Assembly (NCBI GenBank): GCA_963749915.1
Contig: CAVVOP010000022.1
Location: 384,001 to 448,000 of the forward strand
Reading direction: 5' to 3'
DNA: 64,000 nucleotides
Source: an uncultured cyanobacterium
GTDB lineage: Bacteria; Cyanobacteriota; Cyanobacteriia; Cyanobacteriales; Cyanobacteriaceae
Made by a program: the position numbers and the translations under genes
Notes under the pieces: generated by a model
What the model was told of the DNA's origin: nothing
Database searches by the model: none
What the model saw: the letters and a program-made list of their open reading frames with translations, nothing else
In this document: positions 6,499 to 53,031 of the stretch, in pieces
Position numbering within the stretch: the stretch's first letter is position 1
Layout of the letters: each line of letters starts with the position of its first letter

Positions 6499-6600
6499 AA
6501 TGTAGATTTTTTTTGGAAAAAAAACTCGTTTTTTTTGGTATTTAATACAATCTTCACAAATGCCCAAACTTGACAAAATCTTTATATAAAGATTTTGTGA
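6499..6600 (-). promoter_or_regulatory. Shared glycan-gene promoter motif, copy 1 (upstream of sulfotransferase operon)
   Basis: Minus strand ATAAAGATTTTGTCAA (6585-6570), degenerate repeat 28 bp downstream, A-tracts, TACATT -10-like at 6504-6499; aligns with 18885-18996 and 52921-53031. Confidence 0.6.
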
Positions 6601-6626
6601 TATTTAACGAAGAACAGAAAATCTTC

Positions 6627-9600
6627 CTATTCTGTGTAAGTATTCGTCAAGAACGCCTCAATGCCAGCAAAGTTAACAGGAAGACCTGCTACCGTTGTTA
6701 AGTCAAGGTCCAGTGCCCCGTCCGTTACAGTAACGCCATTTAATGTAGCAGTTACCGCCGTTTTAGGTGCCGCATTAGCTCCTAACGCCACATACATGTC
6801 AAAATCGTCTAGTTTAAGCTCATTTTCAGCAAACACATCAAAAACACGGGTACCAACTTCCGCCGTGCTTCTTGGTTCCATCATGTGGAGAACCACATCA
6901 TAGGTGCCATTGACTAAGGGAATGTCGTAGGAAATATTTGTGCCATAACGCTTAGCGTAGAAGAGCTCATCATTATCTGTGTTGGCAATCCCTTGAACTT
7001 GATAATGGGTTGTGCCACCCTGGAAGCCATAGTCAGCAGACCAGACATTGCCATAAATATCCGTAAAGCCGTTCCCACCAACATCAATGCGAATTGTGCT
7101 ATCCCCTAGAGGAGCCGAACTCACCATCACTTCCACTTCAGATGTATCTGTGTCACCATTGATGTCGGTGAGGGTGTAGGAGAAGGTGTCTGTACCACTA
7201 AAATCCTGGGCAGGAGTGTAGCGAATAACATCATCAGTGGGATCGGTTGTGTCCCGGTCATCAATGGTGATATTACCACCATTATTGCTGGTGGTATTTG
7301 CACTCAACAATGCTAAACCATCACCAAAGCTAGTGTCGTTAGCCAGTACATCAATCTGATTACTGTTACTATTGTCAATAACCGTAACACTGTCTGAAAT
7401 TGCCGTCGGCATTGAATCAACCGAGAAAATTTCAATGCCTGCAAAGTTGACAGGGCGGCCTGCAACTTTAGAGAAGTCAAGGTCAAGAACACCATCAACG
7501 ACTGCTACATTGGAAATAATAGTGGTTACTGCTGTTTTCGGAGCCGCTTGAGTATTTAGGGCCACATACATATCAAAGTCATCCAGTCGCAGCTCATTTT
7601 CAGCATAGACATCGAAAACACGACTACCAACGATGGCACCGACATTTGGCTCCATCATGTGTAGAACTACGTTGTAGATGCCATTGCTCAAGTCAATATC
7701 ATAGGAGATATTGTCCCCATAGCGCCTCCCATAAAAGATTTCATCGTTGTTTGTATTAGCAATTTCTTGAACTCGGTAATAAGTTTCACCACCCTGAAAA
7801 CCATAATCCGCCGCCCACACATCGCCGTTGACTCCCGTAAAGCCGTTACCACCAACGTCAATGCGAATCGGGGGATGGACACTATTAAGGGTTATTAACC
7901 CACCATCTGAGGCAGTTATCTCCGAAGGAGCCAAGGTACCGACAGTATTATCCAGGCTGCCCGGGGCAATAATAGTACCGACATTTTTATAAAAGAGCTG
8001 GGAATCTTGATAGAAGAGCTCAAAATCTGACGAGGTAATCAAATTTTCCACGGGGGTGTTTGTTTGATAGCTCCAGGTTTCTCTGGGGGATAATAGACCA
8101 TCACCACCAACGTCGCTGGTGACATCCAAGTCGGGATTTCCCGAGCCATAGTCGGTGACAGTCACATCATTTGTATTGAAGTTTGTAGTACCATTATTGG
8201 TAACCTCATAGGTCCAGATTACTATTTCTCCAGGTCTCACTTGAACAGCGGCATCCCGATTATTCGTCTCGACTCCATTAACCAAAGTTTTGAGGTTTAG
8301 TACAGCAACGCTAATGGGGAAAGGACGTTCTGCCCCCAGTTCATAGGCTCCAATGTCTGGAGCTTCTCCTAGGAATGGTAAGCCGACTTCTGCACCGCGA
8401 TCAACCATCAGACTATCCGCCGTTGCTGGTGCGTAAAATGGCCAGGGGCGATCGCCATTTCCCCTGAATCCAGGTTCTACATCAAGATAATTTCCCCCCG
8501 GTACGTTAGTTACGTTAACAACAATATTATCTGTCGCCGTAATCTTATCACCCATACTAGTCCAAAATAAATTTCTAGGTTGGCTCTGTGGGGCAATAAA
8601 GATATTATTTCGAGCAACCCAATTATTGAGACTATCCCGGTTAGGGGCACTCAAGATGGCTCCTGGTCGGCTACCAGTATCGGCCAAAGTCACCGTATTA
8701 TTATAAACAGAAATCTCTTCAGCAAGTCCCCGGCCGATCCAAACCAGACCCCTATCGACATTCTCAATGACATTATGGTGGAGCCAAACAGGTCCGTTGT
8801 TAATTCCCCCATGCTGAGTGTAGACATTTCCCCCCGTTTCGTCAATGTGAACATAGTTATGGCTGAATCGCAGATGGTTTCTTGGCCCCTCAATAGTGTG
8901 GCTATCTGTTAAGAGATTATCATGAATCCAGAATGAGTAGTCATAACCTCTTTTACTGGGATCTGCTCCCTGTCCAACCTTAGGAATTGAGATGGTTTGA
9001 TTGATAAAGTTGTGGTCAATTTCGACACCATACTCGTTCTCATGGGCTGATTCAATAGCGAATCCAAAAGGAAGGTTGAAGATGTTATGATGAATTCGCA
9101 CATTCTCGTGACCGCCGCCTTTATAGCCAAAACCAGCTCCTTTTGTCTTAACAATATTATTGTGGTGAATTTCAGAGTGTTCAATCCAACGGGTGGTAAT
9201 AAGGCCGTTATTGTAGCCAAAATTCTCATAACTGGCGTTTTCTATGGAGTTATTGTAAATATCTAGCCCACTCGATAACTGAAGATGCAAACCCGCCCAA
9301 CGAAAGTCTCTGACTGTTAGGTCGTGAATAGATATATCTTCTGATCCACTAACATGAACGGCTCCGGTAATCTGGTGCCGGGACTCAGAACTCAACACCA
9401 GATCGCGGATGATGATATTATTGGCATTGTCAATGGCGATCAGATATTCACTTCGAACATCACTTGCTTGAAGCGGGTTCTCCGATAATTGCCAGTCCGT
9501 TGAGGCAATGATCTGAGTCCTATTGTCTCCTTGACGACCCATACCAGCAATGGTGACACCACTTTTAGGGCGAGCTGTCTCTGTTGCCACAAAGGTTCCA

Positions 9601-10295
9601 GCCCCAAGCTGGATCGTGTTAACACCCTCAGGCACCCTTTCACTGGCATAGGCAAGGGAGTTCCAAGCTGTTTCCCAAGATAAGCCGTCTCTATCTTCTG
9701 AATCTACACCAGTGGTGGAAACAAAATAGGTTGTACCCACCTCACCCACATTCTGTTCAATTTGAATGCTTTGACCATCCAAGTTAATATTGGCTGAATC
9801 ATTTTCCACTGTGACCCTTTGCCATTCAGCTTCACTGAAGGATTCACCACGTGCCAGTGCGGAGAAAATCTCACCCTCATCACCAAAAGTGTCTGAACCA
9901 TTAAGCCAAGCATCGACTCGGTGACCAGCTTCCTCCAGAAGAAGTCCTGTAATTGTTTCCACATTGTTAGCATTTGCTACCAAAAATTCGGATGATAGAT
10001 AAATTGTGTCTGTCTCCTGTGCGTAGGCTCCGAGGGAACCTTGGAGATCAGCACCAGAGATTATCCTGATATTAGCAAAAACACTAAAATTCTCAGTTAA
10101 CCAGTCATTCCGAACCTCACTTACATCAATATTTTCACCAAATGCCAATTTCATTTTGGTGACAAATTCTATATCAGAAGCAAACAAAGTTAACTGTTCT
10201 TGTGCTTGCAATAGGGCCTGGTTTAGGGAAGGTAGAACTTCTTGGTCTGTACCGATGAGTAAGTTATTCTCTATAATACTCAAGAATTCACTCAT
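6627..10295 (-). CDS. Large surface/secreted protein: N-terminal EExGH domain, right-handed beta-helix, Ig-like domain, malectin, Ig/cadherin-like, malectin
   Basis: LLEEAGHRVD...GDEGEIFS; IHHN/NNTV beta-helix rungs ending APDIGAYE; two IRIDVGG...W.ADYGF...RVFDV..E...LDDFD malectin domains; IDVLAND...YTP..F.GTDTFSYT module. Confidence 0.85.
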   Translation of the reverse strand: MSEFLSIIENNLLIGTDQEVLPSLNQALLQAQEQLTLFASDIEFVTKMKLAFGENIDVSEVRNDWLTENFSVFANIRIISGADLQGSLGAYAQETDTIYLSSEFLVANANNVETITGLLLEEAGHRVDAWLNGSDTFGDEGEIFSALARGESFSEAEWQRVTVENDSANINLDGQSIQIEQNVGEVGTTYFVSTTGVDSEDRDGLSWETAWNSLAYASERVPEGVNTIQLGAGTFVATETARPKSGVTIAGMGRQGDNRTQIIASTDWQLSENPLQASDVRSEYLIAIDNANNIIIRDLVLSSESRHQITGAVHVSGSEDISIHDLTVRDFRWAGLHLQLSSGLDIYNNSIENASYENFGYNNGLITTRWIEHSEIHHNNIVKTKGAGFGYKGGGHENVRIHHNIFNLPFGFAIESAHENEYGVEIDHNFINQTISIPKVGQGADPSKRGYDYSFWIHDNLLTDSHTIEGPRNHLRFSHNYVHIDETGGNVYTQHGGINNGPVWLHHNVIENVDRGLVWIGRGLAEEISVYNNTVTLADTGSRPGAILSAPNRDSLNNWVARNNIFIAPQSQPRNLFWTSMGDKITATDNIVVNVTNVPGGNYLDVEPGFRGNGDRPWPFYAPATADSLMVDRGAEVGLPFLGEAPDIGAYELGAERPFPISVAVLNLKTLVNGVETNNRDAAVQVRPGEIVIWTYEVTNNGTTNFNTNDVTVTDYGSGNPDLDVTSDVGGDGLLSPRETWSYQTNTPVENLITSSDFELFYQDSQLFYKNVGTIIAPGSLDNTVGTLAPSEITASDGGLITLNSVHPPIRIDVGGNGFTGVNGDVWAADYGFQGGETYYRVQEIANTNNDEIFYGRRYGDNISYDIDLSNGIYNVVLHMMEPNVGAIVGSRVFDVYAENELRLDDFDMYVALNTQAAPKTAVTTIISNVAVVDGVLDLDFSKVAGRPVNFAGIEIFSVDSMPTAISDSVTVIDNSNSNQIDVLANDTSFGDGLALLSANTTSNNGGNITIDDRDTTDPTDDVIRYTPAQDFSGTDTFSYTLTDINGDTDTSEVEVMVSSAPLGDSTIRIDVGGNGFTDIYGNVWSADYGFQGGTTHYQVQGIANTDNDELFYAKRYGTNISYDIPLVNGTYDVVLHMMEPRSTAEVGTRVFDVFAENELKLDDFDMYVALGANAAPKTAVTATLNGVTVTDGALDLDLTTVAGLPVNFAGIEAFLTNTYTE

Positions 10296-10397
10296 AATAC
10301 TTATTTGTCCTTATCAATCACTATAGACTTTGAAATTCTTTCAATTATAACTTTCTTTCTCGTTGATGATTGATGTCAAGAAGAACAAAAAACCTTG

Positions 10398-13300
10398 CTA
10401 TTCCGTGTAAGTCCCGGTCAAGAACGCCTCAATACCAGCAAAATTAACAGGAAGACCTGTCACCGTTGTCAAGTCAAGGTCCAGTGCTCCGTCAGTCACA
10501 GTAACACCTTTTAATGTAGCTGTTACCGCCGTTCCAGGTGCCGCACCAGCACCCAACGCCACAGACATGTGGAAGTCATCTAACCGTAGCTGATCCTCAG
10601 CAACCACATCAAAAACATGGCTACCAACGGTGGCATTTTTGTTGGGTTCCATCATGTGGAGAACCACATCATAGTTGCCATTGGCTAGGGGAATGTCGTA
10701 GGAAATATTTGTGCCATAACGCTTAGCGTAGAAGAGCTCATCATTATCTGTATTGCCAATCTCCTGAACAGCGTAATGAGTGCTGCCACCTTGGAATCCA
10801 TAATCTGCAGACCACTGGTTACCGTAGATGTCGGTAAAACTATCGCCGCCAACATTAATCCGAATGAGGGAATCCCCGGTTGCTGGTGCAGGATTCATTA
10901 GTACATCTACTGCGTTATTTAAACTATTTTCATCCGCGGATATGTTCTCTGCAAATCCATTGGGAGCCAGATTCTCCGCCCCGTTGGAGTCTAGGGAGTA
11001 GATATAAGCAGAACCGCTATTGTCACCATTGTCATCATCACGGAAGGCTCCAACGACAAGATTACTGCCGTCAGTGGAAATTGAATAGCCAAACCAATCA
11101 AGCTCAGCGGCATCAGGGGCCGTGATTTTTTTGGTCTGTATCCAGCTATTGTCATCTTGTTGATGGAAGATGTAGGCAGAACCACTGTCAATGCCACCAT
11201 CATCGTCATTGTAAGCACCAATAGCTAGGGTATTGCCTTTGAGAAAAAGGGAATAACCAAAGCGATCGCCTGCTGTTGCGTCTGCTGCGGTGAGTTTAGC
11301 TGTTTGTGTCCAACTTCCATCCCCCTGACGATTAAAGATGTAAGCCGCACCACTATCTTCACCGGTTTCGTCATTATGTTTAGCTCCCACAACAAGAATA
11401 TTACCATCAATGGAAACATTACGACCAAATTCGTCCCCGTCGGCCCCATCTGCTGGGGTAAGTTTAGCTGTCTCTAACCAATTACCATCCTCTTGGCGGG
11501 TGAAAATGTAAACAGAACCAGTACCATTGCCGTAGGCCCCCACCACAGCAGTATCCTCATTAATGCTAATAGAACGGCGACCCATGAAATCACGGCTAGC
11601 AGCACCAGAGCCGACCAGCTTGGCGGTTTCTGTCCAACTGCCATCCCCTTGACGGGTGAAGATGTAGGCAGAACCAGTATCTACTTTACCCCCATTATCA
11701 TCCCCAAAAGCTCCAATCAGTGCGGTATCGCCATCAATGGAGACAGAGTTACCAAATTCGTCCCCTTTTGCCCCATCAGCAGGGGTCAACATTGCTTTTT
11801 GTACCCAGCTATTGTCTGCTTGCCGAGTAAAGATATAGGCGGAACCTGAGTTATAACCAGGGGCACCGATGATCGCGGTATTACCATCAAGAGCAACATT
11901 ACGACCAAAGTCATCTCTCCCAGCCTTAAGTTTAGCTGTTTCTACCCAACTACCATCAGCCCCTTGTGAAAAAATATAGGCAGACCCAGCTCCATCTCGA
12001 AAAGAACCGATAATCGCGGTGTTTCCCTCTATATAGACAGAACTGCCAAACCAATCATTAGCACTCCCATCGGAGGCAGTAACTTTGGTGACCGTTGGGG
12101 GATTAATGTTAACAGCTAAAACATTTACGGTTACCATGGCGGAAGAACTATCACCATCAATATCGGTAATGGTGTAGTTAAAGGTATCAGTACCATCGAA
12201 ATCTGTGGCGGGGGTGTAGAGAATTTGGTTATTATCTACGGTGACAGTACCGCCGTTAGCACTGGTAGCATCTGCGGTTAAGGAGGCTAATCCATTGCCA
12301 AAGCTGGTATCATTAGCTAGGACATCAATAGTATTACTGCTGCTATTTTCATTGACTGTCCTACTATCTGCCACGGCGGAGGGGAACAAATCCACCGGGG
12401 TAATTGAGTTAACGGTGACGGTTACCATGGCGGAAGAACTATCACCATCAATATCGGTAATGGTGTAGTTAAAGGTATCAGTACCATCGAAATCTGTGGC
12501 GGGGGTGTAGAGAATTTGGTTATTATCTACGGTGACAGTACCGCCGTTAGCACTGGTAGCATCTGCGGTTAAGGAGGCTAATCCATTGCCAAAGCTGGTA
12601 TCATTAGCTAGGACATCAATAGTATTACTGCTGCTATTTTCATTGACTGTCCTACTATCTGCCACGGCGGAGGGGAACAAATCCACCGGGCTAATTGAGT
12701 TAACGGTGACGGTTACCATGGCGGAAGAACTATCACCATCAATATCGGTAATGGTGTAGTTAAAGGTATCAGTACCATCGAAATCTGTGGCGGGGGTGTA
12801 GAGAATTTGGTTATTATCTACGATGACAGTACCACCGTTAGCACTGGTAGCATCTGCGGTTAAGGAGGCTAATCCATTGCCAAAGCTGGTATCGTTAGCT
12901 AGGACGTCAATAGTATTACTGCTGCTATTTTCATTGACTGTCCTACTATCTGCCATCGCACTAGGTAGTAAATCAACGGGGGTACCGCTAGATGGGAGAA
13001 TTTCAATTCCGGCAATGTTGGGAGGGGTACCAGTTACCGTGGAGAAGTCTAAATTCAAAATGCCATCAATCACAGAAACATTGGCAATGGTTGCTGTCAG
13101 TGCTGTAAGGGGTGCCGCCCCAGATCCCAATGCTAGGAACATGTCGAAGTCGTCTAGCCGTACTGTTCCCTCTGCAGATACATCAAAAACACGGCTACCT
13201 ATCCGGGCATTTTTGTTGGGTTCCATCATGTAGAGAACCACATCATAAGTACCATTATCCAGGGCAATGTTGTAGGAAAAATCATCTCCATAACGCTTGC

Positions 13301-13442
13301 CGTAAAATAGCTGATCGTTATCAGTACCGGCAATCTCCAAAGCTTTATAATGGGTTGAACCACCCTGGAAGCCATAGTCAGCAGACCAAACATTGCCATA
13401 AATATCGGTAAAGCCGTTACCGCCAACGTCAATTCTAATCAT
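10398..13442 (-). CDS. Malectin, 3x Ig/cadherin-like, FG-GAP beta-propeller, malectin protein
   Basis: AGAGGA RBS-like site before ATG; malectin at both ends; three 97-aa repeats; about seven FG.SV.I.G.T..IGA...GSAYIF repeats. Confidence 0.85.
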   Translation of the reverse strand: MIRIDVGGNGFTDIYGNVWSADYGFQGGSTHYKALEIAGTDNDQLFYGKRYGDDFSYNIALDNGTYDVVLYMMEPNKNARIGSRVFDVSAEGTVRLDDFDMFLALGSGAAPLTALTATIANVSVIDGILNLDFSTVTGTPPNIAGIEILPSSGTPVDLLPSAMADSRTVNENSSSNTIDVLANDTSFGNGLASLTADATSANGGTVIVDNNQILYTPATDFDGTDTFNYTITDIDGDSSSAMVTVTVNSISPVDLFPSAVADSRTVNENSSSNTIDVLANDTSFGNGLASLTADATSANGGTVTVDNNQILYTPATDFDGTDTFNYTITDIDGDSSSAMVTVTVNSITPVDLFPSAVADSRTVNENSSSNTIDVLANDTSFGNGLASLTADATSANGGTVTVDNNQILYTPATDFDGTDTFNYTITDIDGDSSSAMVTVNVLAVNINPPTVTKVTASDGSANDWFGSSVYIEGNTAIIGSFRDGAGSAYIFSQGADGSWVETAKLKAGRDDFGRNVALDGNTAIIGAPGYNSGSAYIFTRQADNSWVQKAMLTPADGAKGDEFGNSVSIDGDTALIGAFGDDNGGKVDTGSAYIFTRQGDGSWTETAKLVGSGAASRDFMGRRSISINEDTAVVGAYGNGTGSVYIFTRQEDGNWLETAKLTPADGADGDEFGRNVSIDGNILVVGAKHNDETGEDSGAAYIFNRQGDGSWTQTAKLTAADATAGDRFGYSLFLKGNTLAIGAYNDDDGGIDSGSAYIFHQQDDNSWIQTKKITAPDAAELDWFGYSISTDGSNLVVGAFRDDDNGDNSGSAYIYSLDSNGAENLAPNGFAENISADENSLNNAVDVLMNPAPATGDSLIRINVGGDSFTDIYGNQWSADYGFQGGSTHYAVQEIGNTDNDELFYAKRYGTNISYDIPLANGNYDVVLHMMEPNKNATVGSHVFDVVAEDQLRLDDFHMSVALGAGAAPGTAVTATLKGVTVTDGALDLDLTTVTGLPVNFAGIEAFLTGTYTE
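12127..12954. repeat. Intragenic tandem repeat, 291-bp unit, ~2.85 copies
   Basis: ACGGTTACCATGGCGGAAGAAC recurs at 12127, 12418 and 12709; units nearly identical. Confidence 0.95.
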
Positions 13443-13568
13443 ATGAAATCAATCCTCTTAATTAATAATTATTGATAAATTTGGGAGATGGACATTTTAC
13501 TTTCTTAATCCTGAACATTGGGGCCAAGCTAAGGGCAATGCCTCACAATACTGCGAGGGATAGCGGTC

Positions 13569-13769
13569 AAACTTTATGAGATGAGAAGTGTGGGGAGTGT
13601 GGCTCACAGGTGTCGGTTTTTTACAAAAACATTCTGATGAGGGTGAAGACTTGCGAGGACAAGGGTGGAAAGTGGACAAGGAAGAGGGGAATCGTTTAAG
13701 GAACACTTTGTTACAAATAATACATAAATAGCTGAAAAGACCCTTTTTCGTTTGTACTATCTCCCTTGT
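13569..13769 (-). repeat. ~200-bp dispersed repeat, inverted relative to 20946-21146
   Basis: Reverse complement matches 20946-21146 with few mismatches; partial relatives at 13800-13900 and ~33716-33810. Confidence 0.9.
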
Positions 13770-13903
13770 CTGCTGTCCTTCGTTCCTTCCTTGTCTTGTC
13801 TCAACCCAAATGTAAAAAACCTACCCTTGTCAGGGGCACTGTGGGAAGTATGGGATTTTTCTTCCCCATCTTCCCCCTCTTCCAAGTCTCACCTTCGCCC
13901 AAA

Positions 13904-16900
13904 TCAGACGGAAAAGGCAAAAATCTCAATCCCAGAGATGTGGGGAGGACGACCGGCAACGGTGGCAAAATCCAAGTCGAGGTTGCCATCGACTACAGAA
14001 ACATCCGTGATTACTCCCGTCACCGCTGTTCTTGGAGCCGCATTGGTACCCAGTGCCACATACATGTCAAAATTATCCAACCCCAAAGCACCCTCAGCGG
14101 ACACATCAAAGACACGGCTACCAACTGTGGCATCATCTCTCGGCTCTGCCATATAGATAAATACATTGTAATTACCATTAGCCAGGGTAATGTTGTAGCC
14201 AAAATTGTCCCCATAACGTTTGCCGTTAAAGAGCTGATCATTATCAGTCCCCGCAATGGGTTGTGCACGGTAGCTGGTACTTCCTCCTTGGAAGCCATAG
14301 TCAGCAGACCAGACATTGCCATAAATGTCGGTAAAGCCGTTACCACCAACGTCAATGCGAATTAAACTATCCCCAGTGGGGGCAGCCGGATTGACTGTGA
14401 CGCTCACCTGGGCAGAAGCAGTATCTCCGTCGGTATCGGTAATGGTGTAGTTGAAGGTATCAGTACCATCGAAGTTAGCAGGAGGAGTATAGAGAACTCG
14501 GTCATCAGTGGGGTTAGCGTTGCCCTGGTCATCCACCGTGATGGTGCCGCCATTGGCACTAGTAGTAGTATTTAGCGTTAAGGAAGCTAGACCATCGCCA
14601 AAACTGCTGTCATTGGTTAGCACATCTACTATATTGTTAGTACTATTAGCATTTACCGTGGTGGTGTCAGCAGTAGCCTCAGGGAAGAGATCAGAAGGGG
14701 TTCCGGTTCCATCAGCCAAGAAAATCTCAATGCCGGCGATGTTAGCAGGACGACCGGCAACGGTGGCAAAATCCAAGTCGAGGTTGCCATCGACCACAGA
14801 AACATCCGTGATTACTCCCGTCACCGCTGTTCTTGGAGCCGCATTGGCACCTAGAGCCACATACATGTCAAAATTATCCAACCCCAAAGCACCCTCAGCG
14901 GACACATCAAAGACACGGCTGCCGACTGTGGCATCATCTCTCGGCTCCGTCATATGAATGACTACATCATAGTTGCCATCGGCTAAGGGAATGTCGTAAG
15001 AGAAGTTGTTCCCATAACGCTTGCCGTAATAAATCTCATCGTTATTAGTACCAGCAATGGGTCCTGCAAGGTAGCTGATACTTCCTCCTTGGAAGCCATA
15101 GTCAGCAGACCAGACATTACCATCAATATCAGTAAAGCCGCCACCGCCAACTTCAATGCGAGCGATCGCATCCCCCGCCGTAGGAGTCTTAACGATCACG
15201 CTCACCTGAGCAGAATCACTATCTCCGTCGGTATCCGTAATGGTGTAGTTGAAGATATCGGTGCCAGTGAAATTGGCGGGGGGAGTATAGAGAACTCGGT
15301 CATCAGTTTTCTCAGCCGTACCCCGGTCATCCACGGTGATGCTGCCATTGGTACTGGTGGTATTTAGGGTAAAGGAGGCTAGACCATTGCCAAAACTACT
15401 GTCATTGGCTAGCATCTCTACTACATTGTTACTGCTGTTGGCATTCACCGTGATAGTATCGTTAACTGCGTTGGGGAATAGGTCGGTAGGCAGATCAAGC
15501 AGAAACTGAGGAACATAAACATCAGGATAGTTAGCAGGATTAAAAATACCTAGATTGATACCTTTAGCTAAATCCCAGCGAGAATCTAGCTCTGCTACGA
15601 ATTTAACGATGTGCTTAGCGGCCGTAAAACGATCAGAAAATAGCTCTTCTAAAATTACGCCAAGAGAGCCGCTGGGCATGAGATGATAACCGACAGTTTC
15701 CAGGCGATGCTGAACAGCATCTTCCATCCAAACTAAAACATTGTTGTGATAATTGATAGGAATTGTGCCGATACTATCAGTCTTAGTTCCTTTGAGCAGG
15801 AGGACATGCCCTTCTTGCAAGGTTGGACGAACCGGATCCTCTGGAAGAGTGCCATACTTGATGTTCTTATTGTCAAGATCAATTTTTAATGAGCTGTCAT
15901 CAAATTCGATATCAAAGCGCCCAATTTGCAAATCGCTACTAGTTAAAATTTGGTCGTAGAGCGGATCATAGGTTGTGCCCATGAATTGAGGCAGTGCTGC
16001 TTGAGAAGCAGTGAAACCAGGATCAATCAGGAAATGGGCATGAGCATAGGGCAGAGGATTTTCTTCGCCATTAGCCAATGCTTCGCTAATAACAACGTAT
16101 GGATCTTTGAAGCCTTGTTGCCTAACGGTCCCAGTAGACCATTTCTTCCGTAGGTCATATTGTTGGTCAAATCCTATGACTTCTAAATTTGCCAACACTG
16201 TATCAACTTGAACCTGACGCCACAAGATACCATCATCAGTTTTTGCACTGGGATTTGTTGAGGCAATAAAGGTTGAGTCTTTAACGGTAAAACCTGGGTA
16301 GTATTGGCTACCTAAGCCAACATCACCTACTTCCCAAGCCGTAAAATCACTAATGACGCTACGCTCATCATTAGTTCGTCCGCCGCCAATACCAATCATT
16401 TCCAGGCCGCGAGTATCAGCGATGGACTGGTTGCCGACAAAAACATTAAGTCCTGGTGCAAAGGGGTGGATCCCATTGGGGCTATGGACAGATAACGGCT
16501 CTTCCAAAACTTCTGGATCAACATTGATTTGATCTGGAGCACGGAACATAAAAAAGTAACCGTCTAAACCAGAGTTGACCGAAATATTATCAATAGCATC
16601 AATGAGCTTACCTTGAAACCAAAAGCCATTGCCAAAATGCGCCATATCGTGGTTTTTCCATGACCCACGTTTTTCCAAGATCATGGTTAAGTCGGTGCTA
16701 TTATTCGTATAACGATAATCTCTGTTAGGGTCGAAGGTGGCGTCGTTATAATCAGCTCCGTAGGTATTTATGGCCATGTTACCGCTCCAAGTGCCGGTTT
16801 CGTTTCCAGTTTCAGCCATGAAGCCAGCACCTAGGACACCGTAAGTGACATTGTCAGAAAAATCAGCCCGACTATCGTGGCTAACGAAACCCCAGCCAGG

Positions 16901-18688
16901 GCCACCTGTGACCACAGAGCCTTCTATGAGGGCAGTGCTATCCATTTCTGAAGCACCGGCACGATGAAGGTGTACAGCATATCGACCCCGCATATTCGTA
17001 ATTTGGTTAGTCGGTGTTTTGACCCATTGGTCATTTTGTCTGATTCGTTCTGCATCTAGACCATCGAATCCTTTGCGTTGGAAGTCATCCAAAACGTCAT
17101 TCTTGTTAGTGCGTCCCAAATCATCAAAGGAAGCATAGCGTACTTGTACATCCTCGTTGTGCATGAACATGACATGCCCCATACTGGAGGCAATATCACC
17201 GACATCGTCAGCTTCGAGCACGCCTTCAATGGAGAGATCCGTGGCACTGTGGAACTCAATATTGCGAGTCAGGTTTGCCGCATAGGCCTTCAGATCGGAG
17301 CGAGGTGTATCGTGGTTGAAGTCAAGGGCACGGTCGAAGGTAACTGTCTTGCCGCTGATTTGAGTAACTGTACGAATTTCGTCCTGGGTACCTCGTGATT
17401 CTCCTGTTCCAGCCTCACGAGCCACGTAGCGTGTCCCCGTTATCACGATCTGGTCACCTATTTTCCAACCTGCGGGGACTTCGTCTAGCTCAATACTGCT
17501 ATCCCCGGCCATTGCAGTGGTGGCAATGGCTGATTTCGAAAGTTTTTGCTGGCCATTTATACGAGCGGCACCGTGAGTTATGACACCGATAGATAGCTGT
17601 TGAGGATCCCAGTTATATCTGCCAAGGACACCCGCACCATCGCTAACCGTCGTATAATTTGCCGAAGAGCGGGTTCCCGCTCCTGTGTCTGTGACAGTTG
17701 CACTGTCGCTGTAATAGGCGATCGCAGCCGCACTCCACCCTGAGGCCCCCCCTGCTTTATGGGCTTGAATATCAAAGGGACGGATTTCGATGTCAACCTT
17801 GCCATCAGTGGCAGCATCAGCGTCAATTCCAAGATAGCTGGTGGGGGTGGTAAATAATGTGTCGACAACGATCTTAGTATTTGCACCGTTTGTAGCAGTA
17901 AAAGTTAAGTTACCATCTACTCGTACGATAAAAAGGGGTGTGTTGGAGGACCCTTCATAGGTGACGTTGATATTCTCAGGAATATGAACGATTGCACCTG
18001 TTGTTGGAACCTGGCCACTCGCCCAAGTGCTTGAATCAAACCAGTTTCCACTAGCGATGGCAACATGAGTTGCCGTGTTCATCGGGCTTAAATTCATCAA
18101 GGCCTGATGTTCTGCGGCTTTGCCCGGATCATCTGGATGGGGATCCATATCTGCTTCTGCGGCAAAAGTTTGCCCCTCAATGACTAATTGAATGGCATCA
18201 TTTTCTTGGTGTAAAGCTTGCAACTGGGTCTGACTTAGCTCAACTCCCCGCACAATCGCTGAGAAGATAGCACCTTCATCACCCGCACTGTCTGTGTGAT
18301 TAATGCGAGCATCAATGGCATGACCTATCTCTTCCAAATATACTGCCACAACCTGTTCCCTTGGGGCAGTTTCCAGAAAGTCTCGTGACAAAAAAAGCCG
18401 ATCCAGTTCAGATATATAAGCCCCCCTTGCACCAGATAACTCTTCGGAAGTTCGGATTTCAATCTCCGGTAAGCTAGTAAAGTTGCCTTGGCCAAACTGA
18501 AGTAGCAATTGTTGTAATGCTCCGGTATTTACCTCTGTCCCAAATGCTGGTTCTAAAAGACTAGCGGCACCAGAGTCATTATTTTGGATAAAGGCTTGCA
18601 AAAAATCTTGGGAGATTCGCCGAATTTGTTGCAAATTTTCCCACAACTCGAATGGTAATAGTCCTGACTCAGTAGTATTTATGTTCAT
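13904..18688 (-). CDS. Large surface/secreted protein: EExGH domain, G8 domain, beta-helix, 2x (Ig/cadherin-like + malectin)
   Basis: YLEEIGHAID...GDEGAIFS; G8-type SGNWFDSSTWASGQVP...VHIP; GHVMFMH and GRYAVHLH motifs; two malectin domains nearly identical at DNA level. Confidence 0.85.
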   Translation of the reverse strand: MNINTTESGLLPFELWENLQQIRRISQDFLQAFIQNNDSGAASLLEPAFGTEVNTGALQQLLLQFGQGNFTSLPEIEIRTSEELSGARGAYISELDRLFLSRDFLETAPREQVVAVYLEEIGHAIDARINHTDSAGDEGAIFSAIVRGVELSQTQLQALHQENDAIQLVIEGQTFAAEADMDPHPDDPGKAAEHQALMNLSPMNTATHVAIASGNWFDSSTWASGQVPTTGAIVHIPENINVTYEGSSNTPLFIVRVDGNLTFTATNGANTKIVVDTLFTTPTSYLGIDADAATDGKVDIEIRPFDIQAHKAGGASGWSAAAIAYYSDSATVTDTGAGTRSSANYTTVSDGAGVLGRYNWDPQQLSIGVITHGAARINGQQKLSKSAIATTAMAGDSSIELDEVPAGWKIGDQIVITGTRYVAREAGTGESRGTQDEIRTVTQISGKTVTFDRALDFNHDTPRSDLKAYAANLTRNIEFHSATDLSIEGVLEADDVGDIASSMGHVMFMHNEDVQVRYASFDDLGRTNKNDVLDDFQRKGFDGLDAERIRQNDQWVKTPTNQITNMRGRYAVHLHRAGASEMDSTALIEGSVVTGGPGWGFVSHDSRADFSDNVTYGVLGAGFMAETGNETGTWSGNMAINTYGADYNDATFDPNRDYRYTNNSTDLTMILEKRGSWKNHDMAHFGNGFWFQGKLIDAIDNISVNSGLDGYFFMFRAPDQINVDPEVLEEPLSVHSPNGIHPFAPGLNVFVGNQSIADTRGLEMIGIGGGRTNDERSVISDFTAWEVGDVGLGSQYYPGFTVKDSTFIASTNPSAKTDDGILWRQVQVDTVLANLEVIGFDQQYDLRKKWSTGTVRQQGFKDPYVVISEALANGEENPLPYAHAHFLIDPGFTASQAALPQFMGTTYDPLYDQILTSSDLQIGRFDIEFDDSSLKIDLDNKNIKYGTLPEDPVRPTLQEGHVLLLKGTKTDSIGTIPINYHNNVLVWMEDAVQHRLETVGYHLMPSGSLGVILEELFSDRFTAAKHIVKFVAELDSRWDLAKGINLGIFNPANYPDVYVPQFLLDLPTDLFPNAVNDTITVNANSSNNVVEMLANDSSFGNGLASFTLNTTSTNGSITVDDRGTAEKTDDRVLYTPPANFTGTDIFNYTITDTDGDSDSAQVSVIVKTPTAGDAIARIEVGGGGFTDIDGNVWSADYGFQGGSISYLAGPIAGTNNDEIYYGKRYGNNFSYDIPLADGNYDVVIHMTEPRDDATVGSRVFDVSAEGALGLDNFDMYVALGANAAPRTAVTGVITDVSVVDGNLDLDFATVAGRPANIAGIEIFLADGTGTPSDLFPEATADTTTVNANSTNNIVDVLTNDSSFGDGLASLTLNTTTSANGGTITVDDQGNANPTDDRVLYTPPANFDGTDTFNYTITDTDGDTASAQVSVTVNPAAPTGDSLIRIDVGGNGFTDIYGNVWSADYGFQGGSTSYRAQPIAGTDNDQLFNGKRYGDNFGYNITLANGNYNVFIYMAEPRDDATVGSRVFDVSAEGALGLDNFDMYVALGTNAAPRTAVTGVITDVSVVDGNLDLDFATVAGRPPHISGIEIFAFSV

Positions 18689-18884
18689 TTCATTTAGATG
18701 CTTGCCGATCGTTAATAAATTTCAACTTGAGTCCCCGTAACTGAGACCCGTACTGGTACATAAGTCGTCAAGGGGCTTAGACATTTTTACCAGTAGGAGA
18801 TAAGCCCACCACTACGGGCTATTCCATGGCACTAGCAAAAATAAAAACTTGTTTAGTTCTACCTAAGTAATTGGTATTTCTTTC

Positions 18885-18996
18885 AGCTTAGAAGTTTTTT
18901 TTTGAAAATGACTAGTTTTTCCCGGTATTTTACAGAATCTTTAAAAATACCAAAACTTCACGAACCCTTTATATAAGGACTTTACAGAAACTTTAT
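18885..18996 (-). promoter_or_regulatory. Shared glycan-gene promoter motif, copy 2 (upstream of G8-malectin gene)
   Basis: Minus strand repeats ATAAAGTTTCTGTAAA (18996), ATAAAGGGTTCGTGAA (18972), TTAAAGATTCTGTAAA (18944); TAAGCT -10-like at 18890-18885. Confidence 0.65.
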
Positions 18997-19339: not shown

Positions 19340-20816
19340 TAGTAATATCAAATCCGGTTAGTTGCATATAGTAATCGTAGATCTAACAAAGTCCGAAAGA
19401 GCTGAACTCGAGCAGCTAACCAAGAAAGGAAAAATAGCAGCTTACAAAATGAACCATGCCAGAATACTATTGTTAGCGGATGTCAATCAACCAGAAGGCG
19501 GTTGGACAGATCTAAAAATCAGTGAAGCCTTAAATGTTAGTCAAGCAACAATTGAGAGAGTGCGGCAAAGATTTGTCGAATCAGGGATTGAATCGGCTTT
19601 AACTAGAAGAGAGCAAGAGAATCGTCGAAGCAAAATTATCGATGGTGAAAAAGAAGCTTATCTAATTGCAATTGCTTGTAGTGAAACCTCAATGGGACAA
19701 GCAAAATGGACACTTCAAATGCTGGCAGATAAAATGGTCGAACTTCAATATGTGGAAAAAGTATCGAGAGAAACTATTGGAAAAACATTAAAAAAAACGA
19801 ATTGAAACCATGGCTGAATGAATCATGGGTGATTCCGCCAAAGTCTAATGCTGAATTTGTCTGTTCCATGGAAGATGTCTTGGATATTTATCACAGAGAG
19901 TATGATTCTCAAAATCTATGGGTTTGTTTTGATGAAAGTTGTAAACAGTTAGTCAAAGAGGTCAAGAAAAAAATCGAAGCAGAGCCAGGAAAAAAAGAAC
20001 GTTATGACTATACAATATGAACGTAATGGTGTTGCCAATCTGTTTATGTTTTTTGAGCCATTACAAGGTTGGCGACATGTAGAAGTGACACAACAAAGAA
20101 CAGCATCGATTATGCACGCTCTTATGAAATATTTAGTCGATGAACGTTATCCTGATGCCGAAAAAATTAGAGTAATTCAAGACAACTTAAATACTCATGC
20201 AAAAGCCTCATTGTATAAAGCCTTTGAACCGAAAGAGGCGAAAAGAATTTTAGATAAACTCGAATTTCATTACACTCCCAAACATGGCAGCTGGTTAAAT
20301 ATGGCAGAAATTGAGTTGAGCGTTTTGAATCGTCAATGTCTCGAGCGTCGTATCCCAGACATGGATAGTTTAAAGCAAGAAATTGCAGCGTGGGAAGAGA
20401 AACGAAATGAAAAGTCAAATTCAGTCACGCTCTTATGAAATATTTAGTCGATGAACGTTATCCTGATGCCGAAAAAATTAGAGTAATTCAAGACAACTTA
20501 AATACTCATGCAAAAGCCTCATTGTATAAAGCCTTTGAACCGAAAGAGGCGAAAAGAATTTTAGATAAACTCGAATTTCATTACACTCCCAAACATGGCA
20601 GCTGGTTAAATATGGCAGAAATTGAGTTGAGCGTTTTGAATCGTCAATGTCTCGAGCGTCGTATCCCAGACATGGATAGTTTAAAGCAAGAAATTGCAGC
20701 GTGGGAAGAGAAACGAAATGAAAAGTCAAATTCAGTTGACTGGAGATTTACTACTGCTGATGCTCGTATTAAACTCAAGAAACTCTATCCCTCAATTCAA
20801 AGTTGACGGACTACTA
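19340..20816 (+). mobile_element. Degenerate IS630-family element (transposase pseudogene)
   Basis: HTH ORF 19362-19805 with A8 slippage site, DDE pieces (CFDES, QDNLNTH, YTPKHGSWLNMAEIE), additional frameshifts, right end TTGACGGACTAC followed by TA; left boundary approximate. Confidence 0.9.
20115..20736. repeat. 311-bp direct tandem duplication inside the IS630 transposase
   Basis: 20115-20425 repeated at 20426-20736 (CACGCTCTTATGAAA...AAATTCAGT). Confidence 0.95.
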
Positions 20817-20945
20817 GCAGAAGATTGGAGAAAACGCCGATATAAAGCAGCTTTTGTAGCTAAACTGAATGATTGTGAGGCAGAAGCGGCAAGAAACTCA
20901 AGTTTGGTTAAAGTTTGCCGTCTCATGTCAGTATCTCACGGTCGA

Positions 20946-21146
20946 ACAAGGAAGATAGTACAAACGAAAAAGGGTCTTTTCAGCTATTTATGTATTATTT
21001 GTAACAAAATGTTTCTTAAACGATTCCCCTCTTCCTTGTCCACTTTCCACCCTTGTCCCCGCAAGTCTTCACCCTCATCAGAATGTTTTTTACAAAAACC
21101 GACACCTGTGAGCCACACTCCCCACACTTCTCATTTGATCAAGTTT
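20946..21146 (+). repeat. ~200-bp dispersed repeat (partner of 13569-13769), followed by a solitary MITE end at 21152-21169
   Basis: Direct sequence comparison; CTTAACCGAGTAGTATTG differs by one base from the TIR at 34014-34031. Confidence 0.9.
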
Positions 21147-21276
21147 TTCAGCTTAACCGAGTAGTATTGACTCACACCTCCCATACCTCCCACACTCCCT
21201 TGTCTCATGACCTCAAGAAATATCCCGTGAAAAGTTAGCTTAAGCTAATCAATAAGTCCAAAAAACATTTTATTTC

Positions 21277-22463
21277 GGCTCTTCTACAGTGAGTATGACA
21301 AATTAAGTGCAAAAACTTTGAGGTGGTCAAAGCGACTGATTACCATTTTATTACTGACAACGAAATTTTAATTACATTATCGAATCAAACATCAGAGTCA
21401 ACTTGCCCTTATTGTCATACTATTACTAATAAAATACACCAAGTTCATTATTATCGAATTAGAGATATACCTTTGAGTGGTTATGATGTGTTTTTAAATA
21501 TTAACCGTCGTCAATTTCGATGCTCTAATTGCCATCTCATTTTTAGTGAAGAGCTAAATTTTGTCAAAAAAAGAAGAACTTATACAATTAGATTAGCAGA
21601 AAAAGTAGTGAAAGAAGTGCTAGAAAGTGATATTCTCAACACGGCAAAAAGAAATGGAATGACTCCCAGAGAAATAGAAACCTTATTAAAAGAAAAATCA
21701 GAGGATTTATTAGAAGAAAAACCAAAGGATTTAAAAAGATTAGGAATTGATGAAATAACTCAGTTAAAAGGAGGAAAGAATTACGCCGCAGTGTTAGTGG
21801 ATTTAGACAAAAAAAACCGATAGCAATTTTAGAAAACAGGAGTAAAGAGACAATGGGAAAATATTTGATAAGTCTAGGTTGTGAGGTGTTAAATCAAATT
21901 GAAGAAGTCAGTATAGATTTGTGGATAGGATATAAAACTTTGGCATTGGAGTTAATGCCAAATGCAAACGTAGTAGCAGATAGATTTCATGTAATGAAAC
22001 AAATAAATGAAGAATTAGATCTGATGCGAAAAAAGCAAAAAAGGGCAGCTTCAGAAATCAAAAATGAAGTAGAAAGGGAGGAAAAAATAGAGGGATTGAA
22101 AAATAGTAAATACCCGTTATTAAAAAAGAAAGAAAAGCTCAATGAAGTAGAAAAAGAGGCACGGAGGGATATATTTGAAAGTGAAATAACAGCAGAAGAA
22201 GCATTAGATAAAATAGCGGAATGGATGAAATCAGCACAGAAATATTTTCCCAAAAGTTATCAAACAATAAGAAGATGGCTAGATGAAATATTAGGCTATT
22301 TTGACAACAGAACAAGTCAAGGTATAGTAGAAGGAATTAACCAAAAAATTAAGCTGATTAAGAGAAGAGCTTATGGCATGACAAATTTTGATAATTTTAG
22401 GCGAAGAATCTTATTAAATTGGTCTGTATCTTAAAAATGTATCATAGCTACTGTAGAAGAACC
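21277..22463 (+). mobile_element. ISL3-family element, transposase split by a frameshift (21323-21823, 21853-22434)
   Basis: TIRs GGCTCTTCTACAGT / rc GGTTCTTCTACAGT; zinc-finger CPYC..CSNC, LGIDE, VSIDLW, DRFHV, EGINQKIKLIKRRAYG; frameshift in an A-run near 21810. Confidence 0.92.
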
Positions 22464-25528: not shown

Positions 25529-27229
25529 ATGTCTAGTAAATCTAACCATCCCCTGATCCTTATAGGTCTTGATGCCGCTCAACCTCCACTGTTGGAAGAG
25601 TGGATATCCAAAGGATATTTACCCAATATATCTCGCCTCAAATCTGAGGGCGTTTATGGACACTTAGAGAATTTTCGGGATTCTAATGTCGAAACGGCTT
25701 GGACTACCGTAGCCACAGGTTGTTCCCCTCAAACCACCGGATATTGGGCTGCGATGGGTTTAAAGGAAGGCACTTACGAAACTGAAACTCGTGCCGCTTA
25801 CGATTTTCAGGAATATTCTCCCTTTTTCGCTCATTTAAAAGATTATCGCATCGCCACTTTTGATGTGCCACAATTGAGAATTAGAGATGATATTAACGGG
25901 CTACAAATCGGTGGTTGGGGTGCTCACTCTCCCCAAGTACCTAGTTCCTCAGTACCAGAATCTTTATGGCAAGAAATTATTTCTAAACATGGCAATCATC
26001 CGGGTTTACATCGTGATTATGCTGTTTCTTTAGACTTAGAAGGCACATTAGAAATAGAAAAAAGACTACTGACGGGTATAGATAGACGCATCAAAATTTG
26101 TAAAGACCTATTGAGTAGAGAGTCTTGGGATTTATTTTACATGGTATTTGGAGAAACCCACGGTGGTGGTCATCTTTTCTGGCATTTAAGTCAATCAGAT
26201 CATCCCCTTTATAACGTTTTTCAACCATTGATTGATCATGATCCCTTACTCAAAACCTATCAGGCCATTGATAAAGGCATTGGAGAAATACTAGAAGTTG
26301 CTCCCCCTGACGCTAACATTATCTTGTTTTCAGCCCATGGCATGGGTACGGCTCAAATTGATTTACCCAGCTTTATTTTCTTACCTGAATTACTTTATCG
26401 TTATAGCTTCCCGGGTAAATATGCTCTAGGTTATAGTGATCCCTTTGAACCAATACCACCAATGATTACCTCAATGAAATGGAATTACTGGGAGAGAAAT
26501 ATTTGGGGTACTAAATATGATGCTAATCCTTTACGCCGTTTTTTACGAAATGAACTTCCCACTAAACTTTTTAATCTCTTTCAACCATGGATTGATCCCA
26601 TCAGAGATGATGATTTGATTTTTGATACTCAGTTAAGAAAACAAGGGGAAAGAGTAGTTCCCTGGAATCCAGCACAATGGTATAAACCTTTATGGTCAAA
26701 AATGAAAGCCTTTGCTATTCCTAGCTTTGCCGAGGGTTATGTTCGCATAAATCTCAAAGGAAGAGAACCTCAAGGAATTGTTGATCCTTCTGAATATGAT
26801 ACGGTTTGTGAGGAAATTTCTGAACTACTTTACTCTCTCAAAGATGCTCGCAATGGTCTTCCCATGGTAACTCGCATTGTGCGTACCCGTAAAGATAGTA
26901 GCGATCGCAATCCCAAATTACCCGATGCCGATCTGATTGTGGTGTGGAGAGAGGAACATATGACGGATGTAGTCGAAAGTCATACTCAAGGAAGAATAGG
27001 ACCTTTTCCCTTTTACCGTTCGGCCAGTCATCGAGAAAAAGGTTTTATCTTAGCCTGTGGAGAAAATATACCAAAAGGTTTAGAATTGTCGGATGCTCAT
27101 GTCTTAGATCTTCCCCCGACCATTTTAAGTCTGATGGGAGCAAATATTCCCGAACACTTGGAGGGAAAAACTTTATTAAAACTTCAATTAAATGATCTGG
27201 TCATAAATCGTCCACCTGATTATAATTAA
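25529..27229 (+). CDS. Alkaline phosphatase superfamily protein (phosphodiesterase/nucleotide pyrophosphatase-like)
   Basis: LIGLDAA, LPNISRL, AWTTVATG, FGETHGGGHLFW, FSAHG, RINLKGREPQG, LDLPPTIL. Confidence 0.8.
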   Translation: MSSKSNHPLILIGLDAAQPPLLEEWISKGYLPNISRLKSEGVYGHLENFRDSNVETAWTTVATGCSPQTTGYWAAMGLKEGTYETETRAAYDFQEYSPFFAHLKDYRIATFDVPQLRIRDDINGLQIGGWGAHSPQVPSSSVPESLWQEIISKHGNHPGLHRDYAVSLDLEGTLEIEKRLLTGIDRRIKICKDLLSRESWDLFYMVFGETHGGGHLFWHLSQSDHPLYNVFQPLIDHDPLLKTYQAIDKGIGEILEVAPPDANIILFSAHGMGTAQIDLPSFIFLPELLYRYSFPGKYALGYSDPFEPIPPMITSMKWNYWERNIWGTKYDANPLRRFLRNELPTKLFNLFQPWIDPIRDDDLIFDTQLRKQGERVVPWNPAQWYKPLWSKMKAFAIPSFAEGYVRINLKGREPQGIVDPSEYDTVCEEISELLYSLKDARNGLPMVTRIVRTRKDSSDRNPKLPDADLIVVWREEHMTDVVESHTQGRIGPFPFYRSASHREKGFILACGENIPKGLELSDAHVLDLPPTILSLMGANIPEHLEGKTLLKLQLNDLVINRPPDYN

Positions 27230-27275
27230 TTGAACATCGAGAATATTGTCCTTATATTTTGAACAAATAAAGATC

Positions 27276-28146: not shown

Positions 28147-28420
28147 AAGTGATTATAAGGCTCTTTGGGACTTTAGGCTTAAGCCTACAGTTTCTAAACT
28201 CTGGGCTTCTTTTGGGATAAGCTTAAGTACCCGAAGCGGATCCCTGTGGATCGCAAACTAACAGAAATCAGGATTTTGAGTTTTTGTTAGAAAATAATGG
28301 GGCGATCGCTTCTATCAAAGAGTTCTACGATTCAGCAAGGACAAGTGTTTTCCTAGAGTCCTAGAAGAGCGATAATTAATCCGTTAATTTCTTTTGATTA
28401 AATAAAACTTTTTTATAGAT

Positions 28421-29233: not shown

Positions 29234-29277
29234 ATGCAATTATAAAAACTTATTTAAAACCTTTGTAAATATCAGAT

Positions 29278-35890: not shown

Positions 35891-35893
35891 AAG

Positions 35894-39221: not shown

Positions 39222-39263
<42 letters not shown>

Positions 39264-51010: not shown

Positions 51011-51337
51011 TGCCTAATGTCCCTGGGTCTCAACAAAATCATTACATGTAATCTGATTTAACTAGGGCTTGCTGAAGATGTCAATCAGTCATCTTGATAT
51101 TTCCTAGCTAGATTTGCATTATAGTCTATCACCCGCTTTCTCCGTTGCCGCGATCACGGAGTGGCAGGAGAAGGGTAATCGCCCCAAAACTCAGTTTTTC
51201 ACTTTCATTTGCGGAGCATAATTTTACCTTCTGCCTCCCGCCTCCTGACTTGAAAGTGCCAACTTTCATCTCTGATGGTGAAAATTTTTTTTCATGGGGA
51301 CTGCCTTCTGCCTTCGCTCCGTTAGGAACTTATTATT

Positions 51338-52504: not shown

Positions 52505-52736
52505 AATTGTTTCCCTAACTAACTAAGTGTTTTTATCCATTATAGGGGGATATTTGTAAATTTATAGGGGGATATTTTTAAATAATGAATTAATGAAAAA
52601 AAGAGGAGAAAAGGAAGACATCAGGTATGTATAAATGGGGAAGAATGGATAAATAATTTAAACGAAGAGAGGGAAAAAACCATTTCCATCCAAGTCAGCC
52701 GCCTAGAAACTTGACCTAGTAAATCATACGTAAGTA

Positions 52737-52863
52737 GGGCTTGCTGAATAAAATACTAAAATTTTCATCTGTAATAAGAATTTGACACTAACATAAGCTC
52801 TACTTGTTTTTTCTTTAATCTTTCATAGATTGAATAAAGGTTTAAATTTTTATCGGCAAGCCC
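52737..52863. mobile_element. ~127-bp MITE flanked by TA
   Basis: TA-GGGCTTGCTGAATAAAA ... TTTTATCGGCAAGCCC-TA; solitary matching end at 51063-51076. Confidence 0.7.
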
Positions 52864-52920
52864 TAATTATATTTACTAGTATTTAAAATATGTATAACTT
52901 GTTTCAAAAAAGCCCTGATT

Positions 52921-53031
52921 ATAAAGTTTTCGTAAAGCTTTTATATAAAGATTATGTGAAATGTTCGCATTTATAATGATTATGTAAAATGCAAAAAAAA
53001 AACAGTTATTTTCAAAAAAACTGTTTATACT
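52921..53031 (+). promoter_or_regulatory. Shared glycan-gene promoter motif, copy 3 (upstream of WecB/TagA gene)
   Basis: ATAAAGTTTTCGTAAA (52921), ATAAAGATTATGTGAA (52945), ATAATGATTATGTAAA (52973); TATACT at 53026. Confidence 0.65.

Follow-up and report, generated by a model that had tools for sequence, protein, structure and literature searches.

A repeated promoter-like block and its constituent box ahead of glycan and surface-protein genes in an uncultured cyanobacterium

A three-box block in the window and across the genome

The 64,000-nt stretch analysed here (hereafter the window; contig CAVVOP010000022.1, positions 384,001 to 448,000) belongs to the genome of an uncultured cyanobacterium of the Cyanobacteriaceae (GCA_963749915.1, designated G000; 4.69 Mb in 34 contigs, 37.5% GC), whose gene content is cyanobacterial, including kai genes, RpaA/RpaB-type regulators and a bilin reductase. 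At three sites, named copies A, B and C, the window carries a block of repeated boxes upstream of genes for sulfotransferases and glycosyltransferases (GT), a malectin protein and a WecG/TagA/CpsF glycosyltransferase, respectively (Table 1). Relatives named below are designated G001, G004, G005, G010, G015 and G026, and extracted loci carry L-numbers.

The original prediction, made on the window alone, described three repeats with 24- and 28-bp spacing followed by A-tracts and a TAnnnT element, all of which were found where it had placed them. Box by box, copy B has 1, 3 and 1 mismatches to the 16-mer consensus, copy C 2, 0 and 1, and the two boxes of copy A 1 and 4; across 98 ungapped positions, pairs of copies share 65, 66 and 74 bases. 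Box 2, a degenerate box 3 and TACATT were present in copy A as described, and repeat 1 proved to be replaced there by an inverted copy of box 2. The TACTTA reported after the -10 element also occurs in all three copies, at a variable distance (its ACTTA core starts 70, 76 and 79 nt after the start of box 3). The target of copy B, named beforehand as a G8-malectin gene, encodes malectin domains, with its G8 domain falling under the Pfam cut-off (19.6 vs 22.9 bits).

Scanning the genome with matrices built from the window sites showed the block to be real and larger than first claimed, with eight additional copies beyond the window. In leave-one-out scans, two-site matrices placed the third site 7th, 4th and 5th among 9,379,790 positions in G000, the only positions outranking it being the two training sites and further copies of the block. 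A matrix of boxes 2 and 3 gave 12 placements at 11 loci, scoring 64.6 to 44.6 bits, the next best position scoring 10.6; this matrix was trained on those 11 loci, and the untrained discovery is that of the window-site matrices. The block is about 120 bases long and its copies are spread over six contigs. All 11 lie between called open reading frames, and ten are sense-oriented ahead of a gene start. Five of these ten precede glycosyl- or sulfotransferase units, and the others precede genes for adhesin-like proteins, a pilin and an oxidoreductase. The downstream genes belong to different families with unrelated flanking coding sequences.

Every box consists of an 11-bp direct repeat (TAAAG-WTTNTG-TAAAG), and box 3 lies 52 nt, or five turns, from box 1. 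An A-tract follows box 3 and is succeeded by a weak -35 element, which in most copies (TAGTCA, CAGTTA, TAGCTA, TAGCCA or TGGTCA) lies 17-18 nt ahead of TAnnnT. The latter occurs 51-57 nt after box 3 in 11 of 11 copies, against a background of 25% (51-56 window, AT-rich DNA), and ends in CT in ten of them; provided this predicted -10 is real, box 3 lies at about -65 to -48. Identity among copies reaches 73% in the stretch separating box 2 from box 3 and 62% in the 30 nt before the -10, compared with 27-28% in the flanks.

ACTTA follows 68-79 nt after box 3 in nine of the 11 copies, and the SdrD copy (G000:C8:326140-327834) is succeeded by three ACTTA repeats at 13-nt spacing. Near boxes (flanks L026-L073), a GTA-N4-TAC palindrome within YMMGTA....TACKKA is enriched (15 vs 4.7 expected), as is GTA-N8-TAC (12 vs 4.3 expected). 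The TACTTA of the block may be a half-site of the GTA-N4-TAC palindrome.

Table 1. Positions of the block copies and of the genes they face (window coordinates unless a G000 contig position is given)
Feature	Position	Strand	Details
Copy C box 1	52921..52938	+	consensus match, leave-one-out scan
Copy C box 2	52945..52962	+	24 nt after box 1; 22.3 bits
Copy C box 3	52973..52990	+	28 nt after box 2; 20.0 bits; predicted at about -65 to -48
Copy C predicted core promoter	53003..53031	+	weak -35 CAGTTA, 17 nt, TATACT; not in strict consensus scan
Copy C downstream TACTTA	53051..53056	+	sequence
Copy C target	53126..54244	+	WecG/TagA/CpsF glycosyltransferase, C-terminal MshE-related c-di-GMP-binding domain
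Copy B box 1	18979..18996	-	20.8 bits
Copy B box 2	18955..18972	-	14.9 bits
Copy B box 3	18927..18944	-	21.9 bits
Copy B predicted core promoter	18885..18913	-	weak -35 TAGTCA, 17 nt, TAAGCT
Copy B downstream TACTTA	18864..18869	-	sequence
Copy B target	13904..18688	-	1594-aa beta-helix/Ig/malectin protein, first of three tandem malectin genes
Copy A perfect 26-bp palindrome	6573..6598		box 2 fused with an inverted box (14.6 bits) that replaces box 1
Copy A box 2	6568..6585	-	21.3 bits
Copy A box 3, degenerate	6540..6557	-	17.9 bits
Copy A predicted core promoter	6499..6527	-	poor -35 GAGTTT, 17 nt, TACATT
Copy A downstream TACTTA	6483..6488	-	sequence
Copy A target	1..6415	-	run of five sulfotransferase, one GT4 and one GT2 genes; continues past window edge
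Copy beyond window edge (2.2 kb left)	G000:C22:381830		target GT2-GT4-GT4-sulfotransferase run
Further copy	G000		target double GT2, ABC-2 permease three genes later
Further copy	G000		target weakly GT-like gene with PhyH and sulfotransferase
Further copy	G000		target SdrD-repeat protein
Further copy	G000		target RTX-repeat protein
Further copy	G000		target frameshifted type IV pilin
Further copy	G000, contig C8		target FAD oxidoreductase, weakly similar to UDP-galactopyranose mutase
Eleventh copy	G000:C5:147305		faces no gene

The window targets have few close homologues. At E<=1e-60, the wecG target of copy C had no match in 19 genomes of the family, and at E<=1e-40 the N-terminal 1063 aa of the copy B target had none in the same number; matches to the first sulfotransferase gene of the copy A run (E<=1e-30) were confined to 2 of 200 genomes of the order, none of them in the family.

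Several neighbouring features were also recorded. The C-terminal MshE-related c-di-GMP-binding domain of the copy C target (residues 291-343; NF053729, 45.8 bits, cut-off 38) is shared by the WecG enzymes at L058 and L206, which suggests that c-di-GMP may control the enzyme. The tandem malectin/Ig proteins (window 6627-18688; 1222, 1014 and 1594 aa) are encoded at 45-48% GC, against 37.5% for the genome, and are followed by insertion sequence (IS) remnants at 19362-22434. The pilin target (L006:8273-8830; G000:C22 near 460000) has an N-methylation motif, with its upstream leader in another frame beyond a run of ten T, possibly by phase variation or an assembly error. A second glycan unit in the window (25529-30953), encoding a phosphodiesterase, a PEP-CTERM protein (27460-28146), a sulfotransferase, a GT4 and an acetyltransferase, had no box among the top 70 upstream scores in G000. 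Two boxes 18 nt apart at G000:C22:308942-308996, facing an IS-like gene, are possibly a disrupted member of the block family.

Single boxes in other cyanobacteria and the ancestral locus

With up to three mismatches allowed, the two-box pattern was found in none of 40 relatives and none of 400 genomes of the phylum (overlapping sets), and exact two-box patterns had no match in genome and metagenome contig collections, where no mismatch was allowed and records of G000 itself may be missing. The single box gave 63 matches in 28 of the 40 relatives (7 for the reversed control) and 124 matches in 160 genomes of the class (58 for the control). Its neighbours, in either orientation, include genes for PEP-CTERM proteins, priming sugar transferases, WecG, pilin-like proteins, FtsZ, SigF and HetP-family proteins.

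When PEP-CTERM genes were chosen by family alone, a box of at least 12 bits preceded 7 of 24, all seven in sense orientation, with 0.13 expected (one of the 17 negatives was mis-parsed, and one of the seven positives, L236, was known beforehand); among control genes the figure was 1 of 32. A box also preceded 6 of 60 WecG homologues (0.23 expected). One box in G026 (L056) has TTGACA at +31 and TATAAT at +53, that is, the geometry of the block with consensus elements, and further boxes in relatives recur at 11, 22, 31-32 and 42 nt. G026, which belongs to another family, holds 11 exact boxes (L056-L075), mostly ahead of PEP-CTERM or sugar-transferase genes. Lone boxes in G000 precede a PEP-CTERM/sugar-transferase pair, ftsZ, and what the sequences suggest to be an rfbF-like operon, a galE-like pair and sepF. 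Those ahead of ftsZ occur in two congeners (G000:C11:22638; L033), and the one ahead of the sepF-like gene lies at G000:C20:248094.

No description of TAAAG-WTTNTG-TAAAG was found in the literature, searched by sequence text and by the PEP-CTERM/cyanobacteria topic, although figure logos, supplements and subscription papers could hold one; the sequence text gave a single, unrelated paper on Francisella, and the topic yielded none whose title or abstract describes the box. In the available text of PMC1569441, the PrsR/sigma-54 motif of PEP-CTERM genes precedes a sigma-54 promoter and is described only in Proteobacteria, further PEP-CTERM motifs and regulators being left to discover. Like the present box, it is a sometimes repeated motif upstream of PEP-CTERM and exopolysaccharide (EPS) genes, and its 3' hexamer TTTACA also occurs on the reverse strand of the box, whereas the core of the block is sigma-70-like. 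The block is a real expansion, specific to this lineage and well past what chance would give, that builds on a cyanobacterial glycan/PEP-CTERM box absent from the literature searched.

A recognisable ancestor of the block lies at the wecG/PEP-CTERM locus, syntenic in G001 and G010. In G001, box 3, TAGTCA, 17 nt, TATACT and CACTTAAGT stand ahead of a TIGR04155 PEP-CTERM gene that is divergent from a 407-aa WecG gene; G010 has the same divergent pair and boxes in the 24/28 register, the first two 24 nt apart and the third decayed. The gene-less copy of G000 (C5:147305) sits at this same syntenic locus, adjoining a 409-aa WecG gene. Over 90 nt, the G000 copies are 56-82% identical to one another and 46-61% identical to the syntenic copies of G001 and G010, and the C5:147305 copy is closer to other G000 copies (56-76%) than to its G001 orthologue (51%). 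Matches to the proximal pattern numbered five in G000, one in G001 and none in G004, G005 and G010.

No cassette was found in the hemH neighbourhood of 5 of 5 congeners or at the orthologues of the C8 oxidoreductase in four congeners. An upstream box was also absent from the closest homologues of wecG (65-66% identity; L121-L123) and of the first sulfotransferase (47%; L243, L244). The conserved spacers between boxes indicate copying, and since the block is homologous along its whole length it was likely copied rather than built site by site. We infer that copying took place within the G000 lineage.

Putative mobile promoters, as far as the accessible text of Nijveen et al. (2012, PMC3575422) describes them, are homologous upstream regions ahead of unrelated genes, mostly pairs at about 92% identity, with function not known. 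The block resembles them in its unrelated downstream genes and differs in comprising 11 older copies with one functional class of targets, a readable promoter anatomy and a traceable ancestral locus. Under the criterion used for such promoters (80% over 50 nt), 21 of the 55 copy pairs qualify, the window pairs reaching only 76-78%; by its sequence, the block would be classed as a putative mobile promoter family.

Candidate readers of the box

The comparisons with XssQ sites and with the RpaB site HLR1 suggested in the original prediction were carried out, and neither site fits. The available text on Synechocystis PCC 6803 (PMC8205485) describes one activator, XssQ, for sulfotransferase and WecB/TagA genes, with single or tandem sites upstream of the start. 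The same target classes recur here, and the Synechocystis xssA promoter, one of five tested, scores 11.3 bits with the box matrix. AAGTTnnAC, which all five regulated xss promoters of pSYSM contain, occurs in 0 of 11 copies. G000 has no XssQ, its only match being a 74-aa helix-turn-helix (HTH) match with no NACHT match, and the box-rich G026, G005 and G010 likewise lack an XssQ match; the targets are also spread over six contigs, compared with one plasmid cluster in Synechocystis. The reading of the block as the XssQ regulon that governs the making of sulfated exopolysaccharide is largely refuted. The HTH match lies in a 435-aa protein (G000:C21:163296-164603; N-terminal HTH 40% identical over 74 aa) whose remaining domain is unlike the NACHT region of XssQ, and this protein is a further candidate regulator.

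Other known patterns were rejected as well. HLR1 (KTTACAWW-N2-KTTACAWW) was matched at best with three mismatches in 3 of the 11 copies and with four in seven, the remaining copy giving no match, and its period is 10 bp. Patterns for NtcA and CRP occurred in one copy each, and a downstream sigma-54 -24/-12 pattern in 0 of 11. An OmpR gene 8 kb from the boxed rfbF-like operon is not part of that operon.

The box resembles the tandem half-sites of OmpR-type regulators described for RpaB/HLR1 in the available text of PMC13421787 and for RpaA in that of PMC12916501. If the predicted -10 is real, box 3 would fall within the window from -66 to -45 from which RpaB activates (PMC13421787); HLR1 differs in its 10-bp period and fits only with three or more mismatches. 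The period of RpaA sites is 11 bp, as in the box, and RpaA binds TAAA-N7-TTAA head to tail (PMC12916501), which raises the alternative that the box is an RpaA site and that the cassette makes the expression of glycan genes circadian and dusk-phased. G000 encodes RpaA (C8:483563-484294), 8 of the 11 copies contain TAAA-N7-TAAA (exact TAAA-N7-TTAA in one box, that of C5, and once outside a box), and, judged by eye, the box agrees at 13 of its 17 positions with the published PpurF site and at 11 with the PkaiBC site. Known RpaA targets in G000, however, lack the box: among 3245 upstream regions, the orthologues of targets listed in the PMC10805033 supplement ranked 508 (rpaA), 536 (kaiC), 1150 (hup) and 1330 (purF), a ranking that is not neutral because the matrix used is specific to this box. 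A loose repeat, whose background is 570 of the 3245 regions, is absent before kaiA and kaiB and occurs ahead of rpaA and purF, and by our own count the kaiBC site begins 37 nt before its -10, compared with 53 for the block. Nor is the box enriched in 57 genomes of the class that should all encode RpaA. We regard the RpaA explanation as unlikely.

The ten full-length OmpR-type regulators of G000 also include a paralogue of RpaB (C5:117039-117773), whose best NCBIfam match is RpaB at 207 bits (cut-off 330) and which is probably SrrA, an assignment made by description only (PMC13421787, as far as its text is available). Among the 160 class genomes, the 103 with this paralogue gave 101 box matches against 34 for the control, and the 57 without it gave 23 against 24; five of the latter were confirmed to have no orthologue-level match to it. 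The nominal Fisher p of 0.002 for this co-occurrence is overstated, since kin genomes are not independent, and box enrichment can be said to track the paralogue weakly. Autoregulation of the paralogue is not supported, a box lying upstream of 1 of 27 orthologues.

Among individual readers, a factor outside the OmpR family has a sizeable chance; the RpaB paralogue, probably SrrA, is a tentative candidate, another OmpR-type protein a slightly weaker one, and RpaA weaker again. The reading to which we commit, an OmpR-type class I activator, is the most likely.

Interpretation and significance

The original prediction of a shared binding array for one EPS regulon holds in so far as the evidence points to a glycan/surface regulon. 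Its scope, an island plus the distant WecB gene, was too narrow for a regulon that is genome-wide, and the array reading was also incomplete, the block having likely been copied and the single box being a wider motif tied to PEP-CTERM and sugar-transferase genes. We consider it probable that the block at the 11 loci is an activator-dependent sigma-70-type promoter, copied within the lineage from the promoter of an ancestral PEP-CTERM gene, which would bring glycan and surface-protein genes, probably imported ones, under the control of a single regulator. In the mechanism we propose, a head-to-tail dimer of an OmpR-family response regulator would bind each TAAAG-N6-TAAAG repeat, the proximal dimer (about -65 to -48) would recruit RNA polymerase through the alpha C-terminal domain, and the A-tract beside the weak -35 would assist this recruitment. 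The upstream boxes could contribute cooperativity or looping, and TACTTA near the start may be a half-site of a second factor.

A number of observations weigh against this interpretation. The -35 of copy A is poor and copy C is missing from the strict promoter scan, and the single RNA run searched (word share 0.13) gave two 151-nt records of depth 2 inside or just before wecG, uninformative on starts. The box is absent ahead of 17 of the 24 PEP-CTERM genes in relatives and of 5 of the 6 scored in G000, as well as ahead of 54 of the 60 WecG homologues, the three closest included, and in relatives many of the single boxes are oriented away from the closest glycan or pilin-like gene. A -10 offset of 53-55 is only modestly enriched in relatives (14 of 66; mean 6.8, sd 2.9), windows 23 and 41 also reaching 14. 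At the proposed ancestral locus, G000 has lost its PEP-CTERM gene, and the copy there is intact; in front of it lie about 200 nt of non-coding sequence and a convergent gene's end. The shortened upstream sequence of G004 shows no cassette, and in G015, where both ancestral genes remain, the interval separating them is only about 75 nt, so that the cassette has been lost there. The copies show no visible mechanism of copying, such as shared terminal repeats or target duplications. Few clades underlie the co-occurrence with the RpaB paralogue, which may simply follow the distribution of target genes.

Among the remaining explanations, the targets could have arrived by horizontal transfer with the cassette already in place, the donor being an unsampled cyanobacterium where the cassette had spread earlier. 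The three window targets without close homologues in the family, the GC content of the malectin genes and the divergence of the copies (56-82% identity) agree with such an arrival. Against it stand the closest homologues of wecG and the first sulfotransferase, which lack an upstream box, the distribution of copies over six contigs, the lack of any match to exact two-box patterns in genome or metagenome contigs, and the copy at the vertically inherited C5 locus, nearer to other G000 copies than to its orthologue; we think this history improbable. Less probable still is a constitutive promoter whose boxes bind a repressor or a nucleoid-associated silencer. AT-rich imported genes are often silenced, both -35 and -10 elements are there, 17-18 nt apart, and TACTTA overlaps the -10 or start region, but the -35 is weak and the boxes lie upstream of it at a fixed distance. 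RpaB, in the available text of PMC13421787, acts as an activator at -66 to -45 and as a repressor at -38 to +23.

The most doubtful of these alternatives, which we hold to be very improbable, is that the block is a decayed miniature inverted-repeat transposable element (MITE) or repetitive extragenic palindrome (REP), or a small RNA, and not a promoter. Its copies are indeed dispersed, lineage-specific and 56-82% identical, copy A contains a perfect palindrome and one copy has no gene. Yet ten of 11 copies are in sense toward a gene start, the box stands alone before related gene classes in other families, and the check set beforehand for this possibility left the regulatory reading standing: no Rfam match in 12 loci, no consensus structure, and no shared terminal repeats or target duplications, only unshared matches of 6-9 nt.

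As a promoter family, the block makes the growth of a regulon through promoter copying unusually easy to read, with an ancestral locus, ten derived copies and one functional theme. Control of sulfated exopolysaccharide independently of XssQ matters for biofilms, blooms and polysaccharide production. Haft et al. (2006, PMC1569441), in the text available, found a PEP-CTERM motif only in Proteobacteria and left the cyanobacterial one open, and the box is a concrete candidate of 16-18 bp for it. A more far-reaching and rather speculative possibility is that TAAAG-WTTNTG-TAAAG supplies the missing cis-element of the cyanobacterial PEP-CTERM/exopolysaccharide regulon and has the RpaB paralogue SrrA as its reader, and that one lineage enlarged this regulon by copying one three-box promoter about ten times before imported sulfated-glycan and adhesin genes. 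If so, NblS stress sensing would be linked to the cell coat and to ftsZ and sepF.

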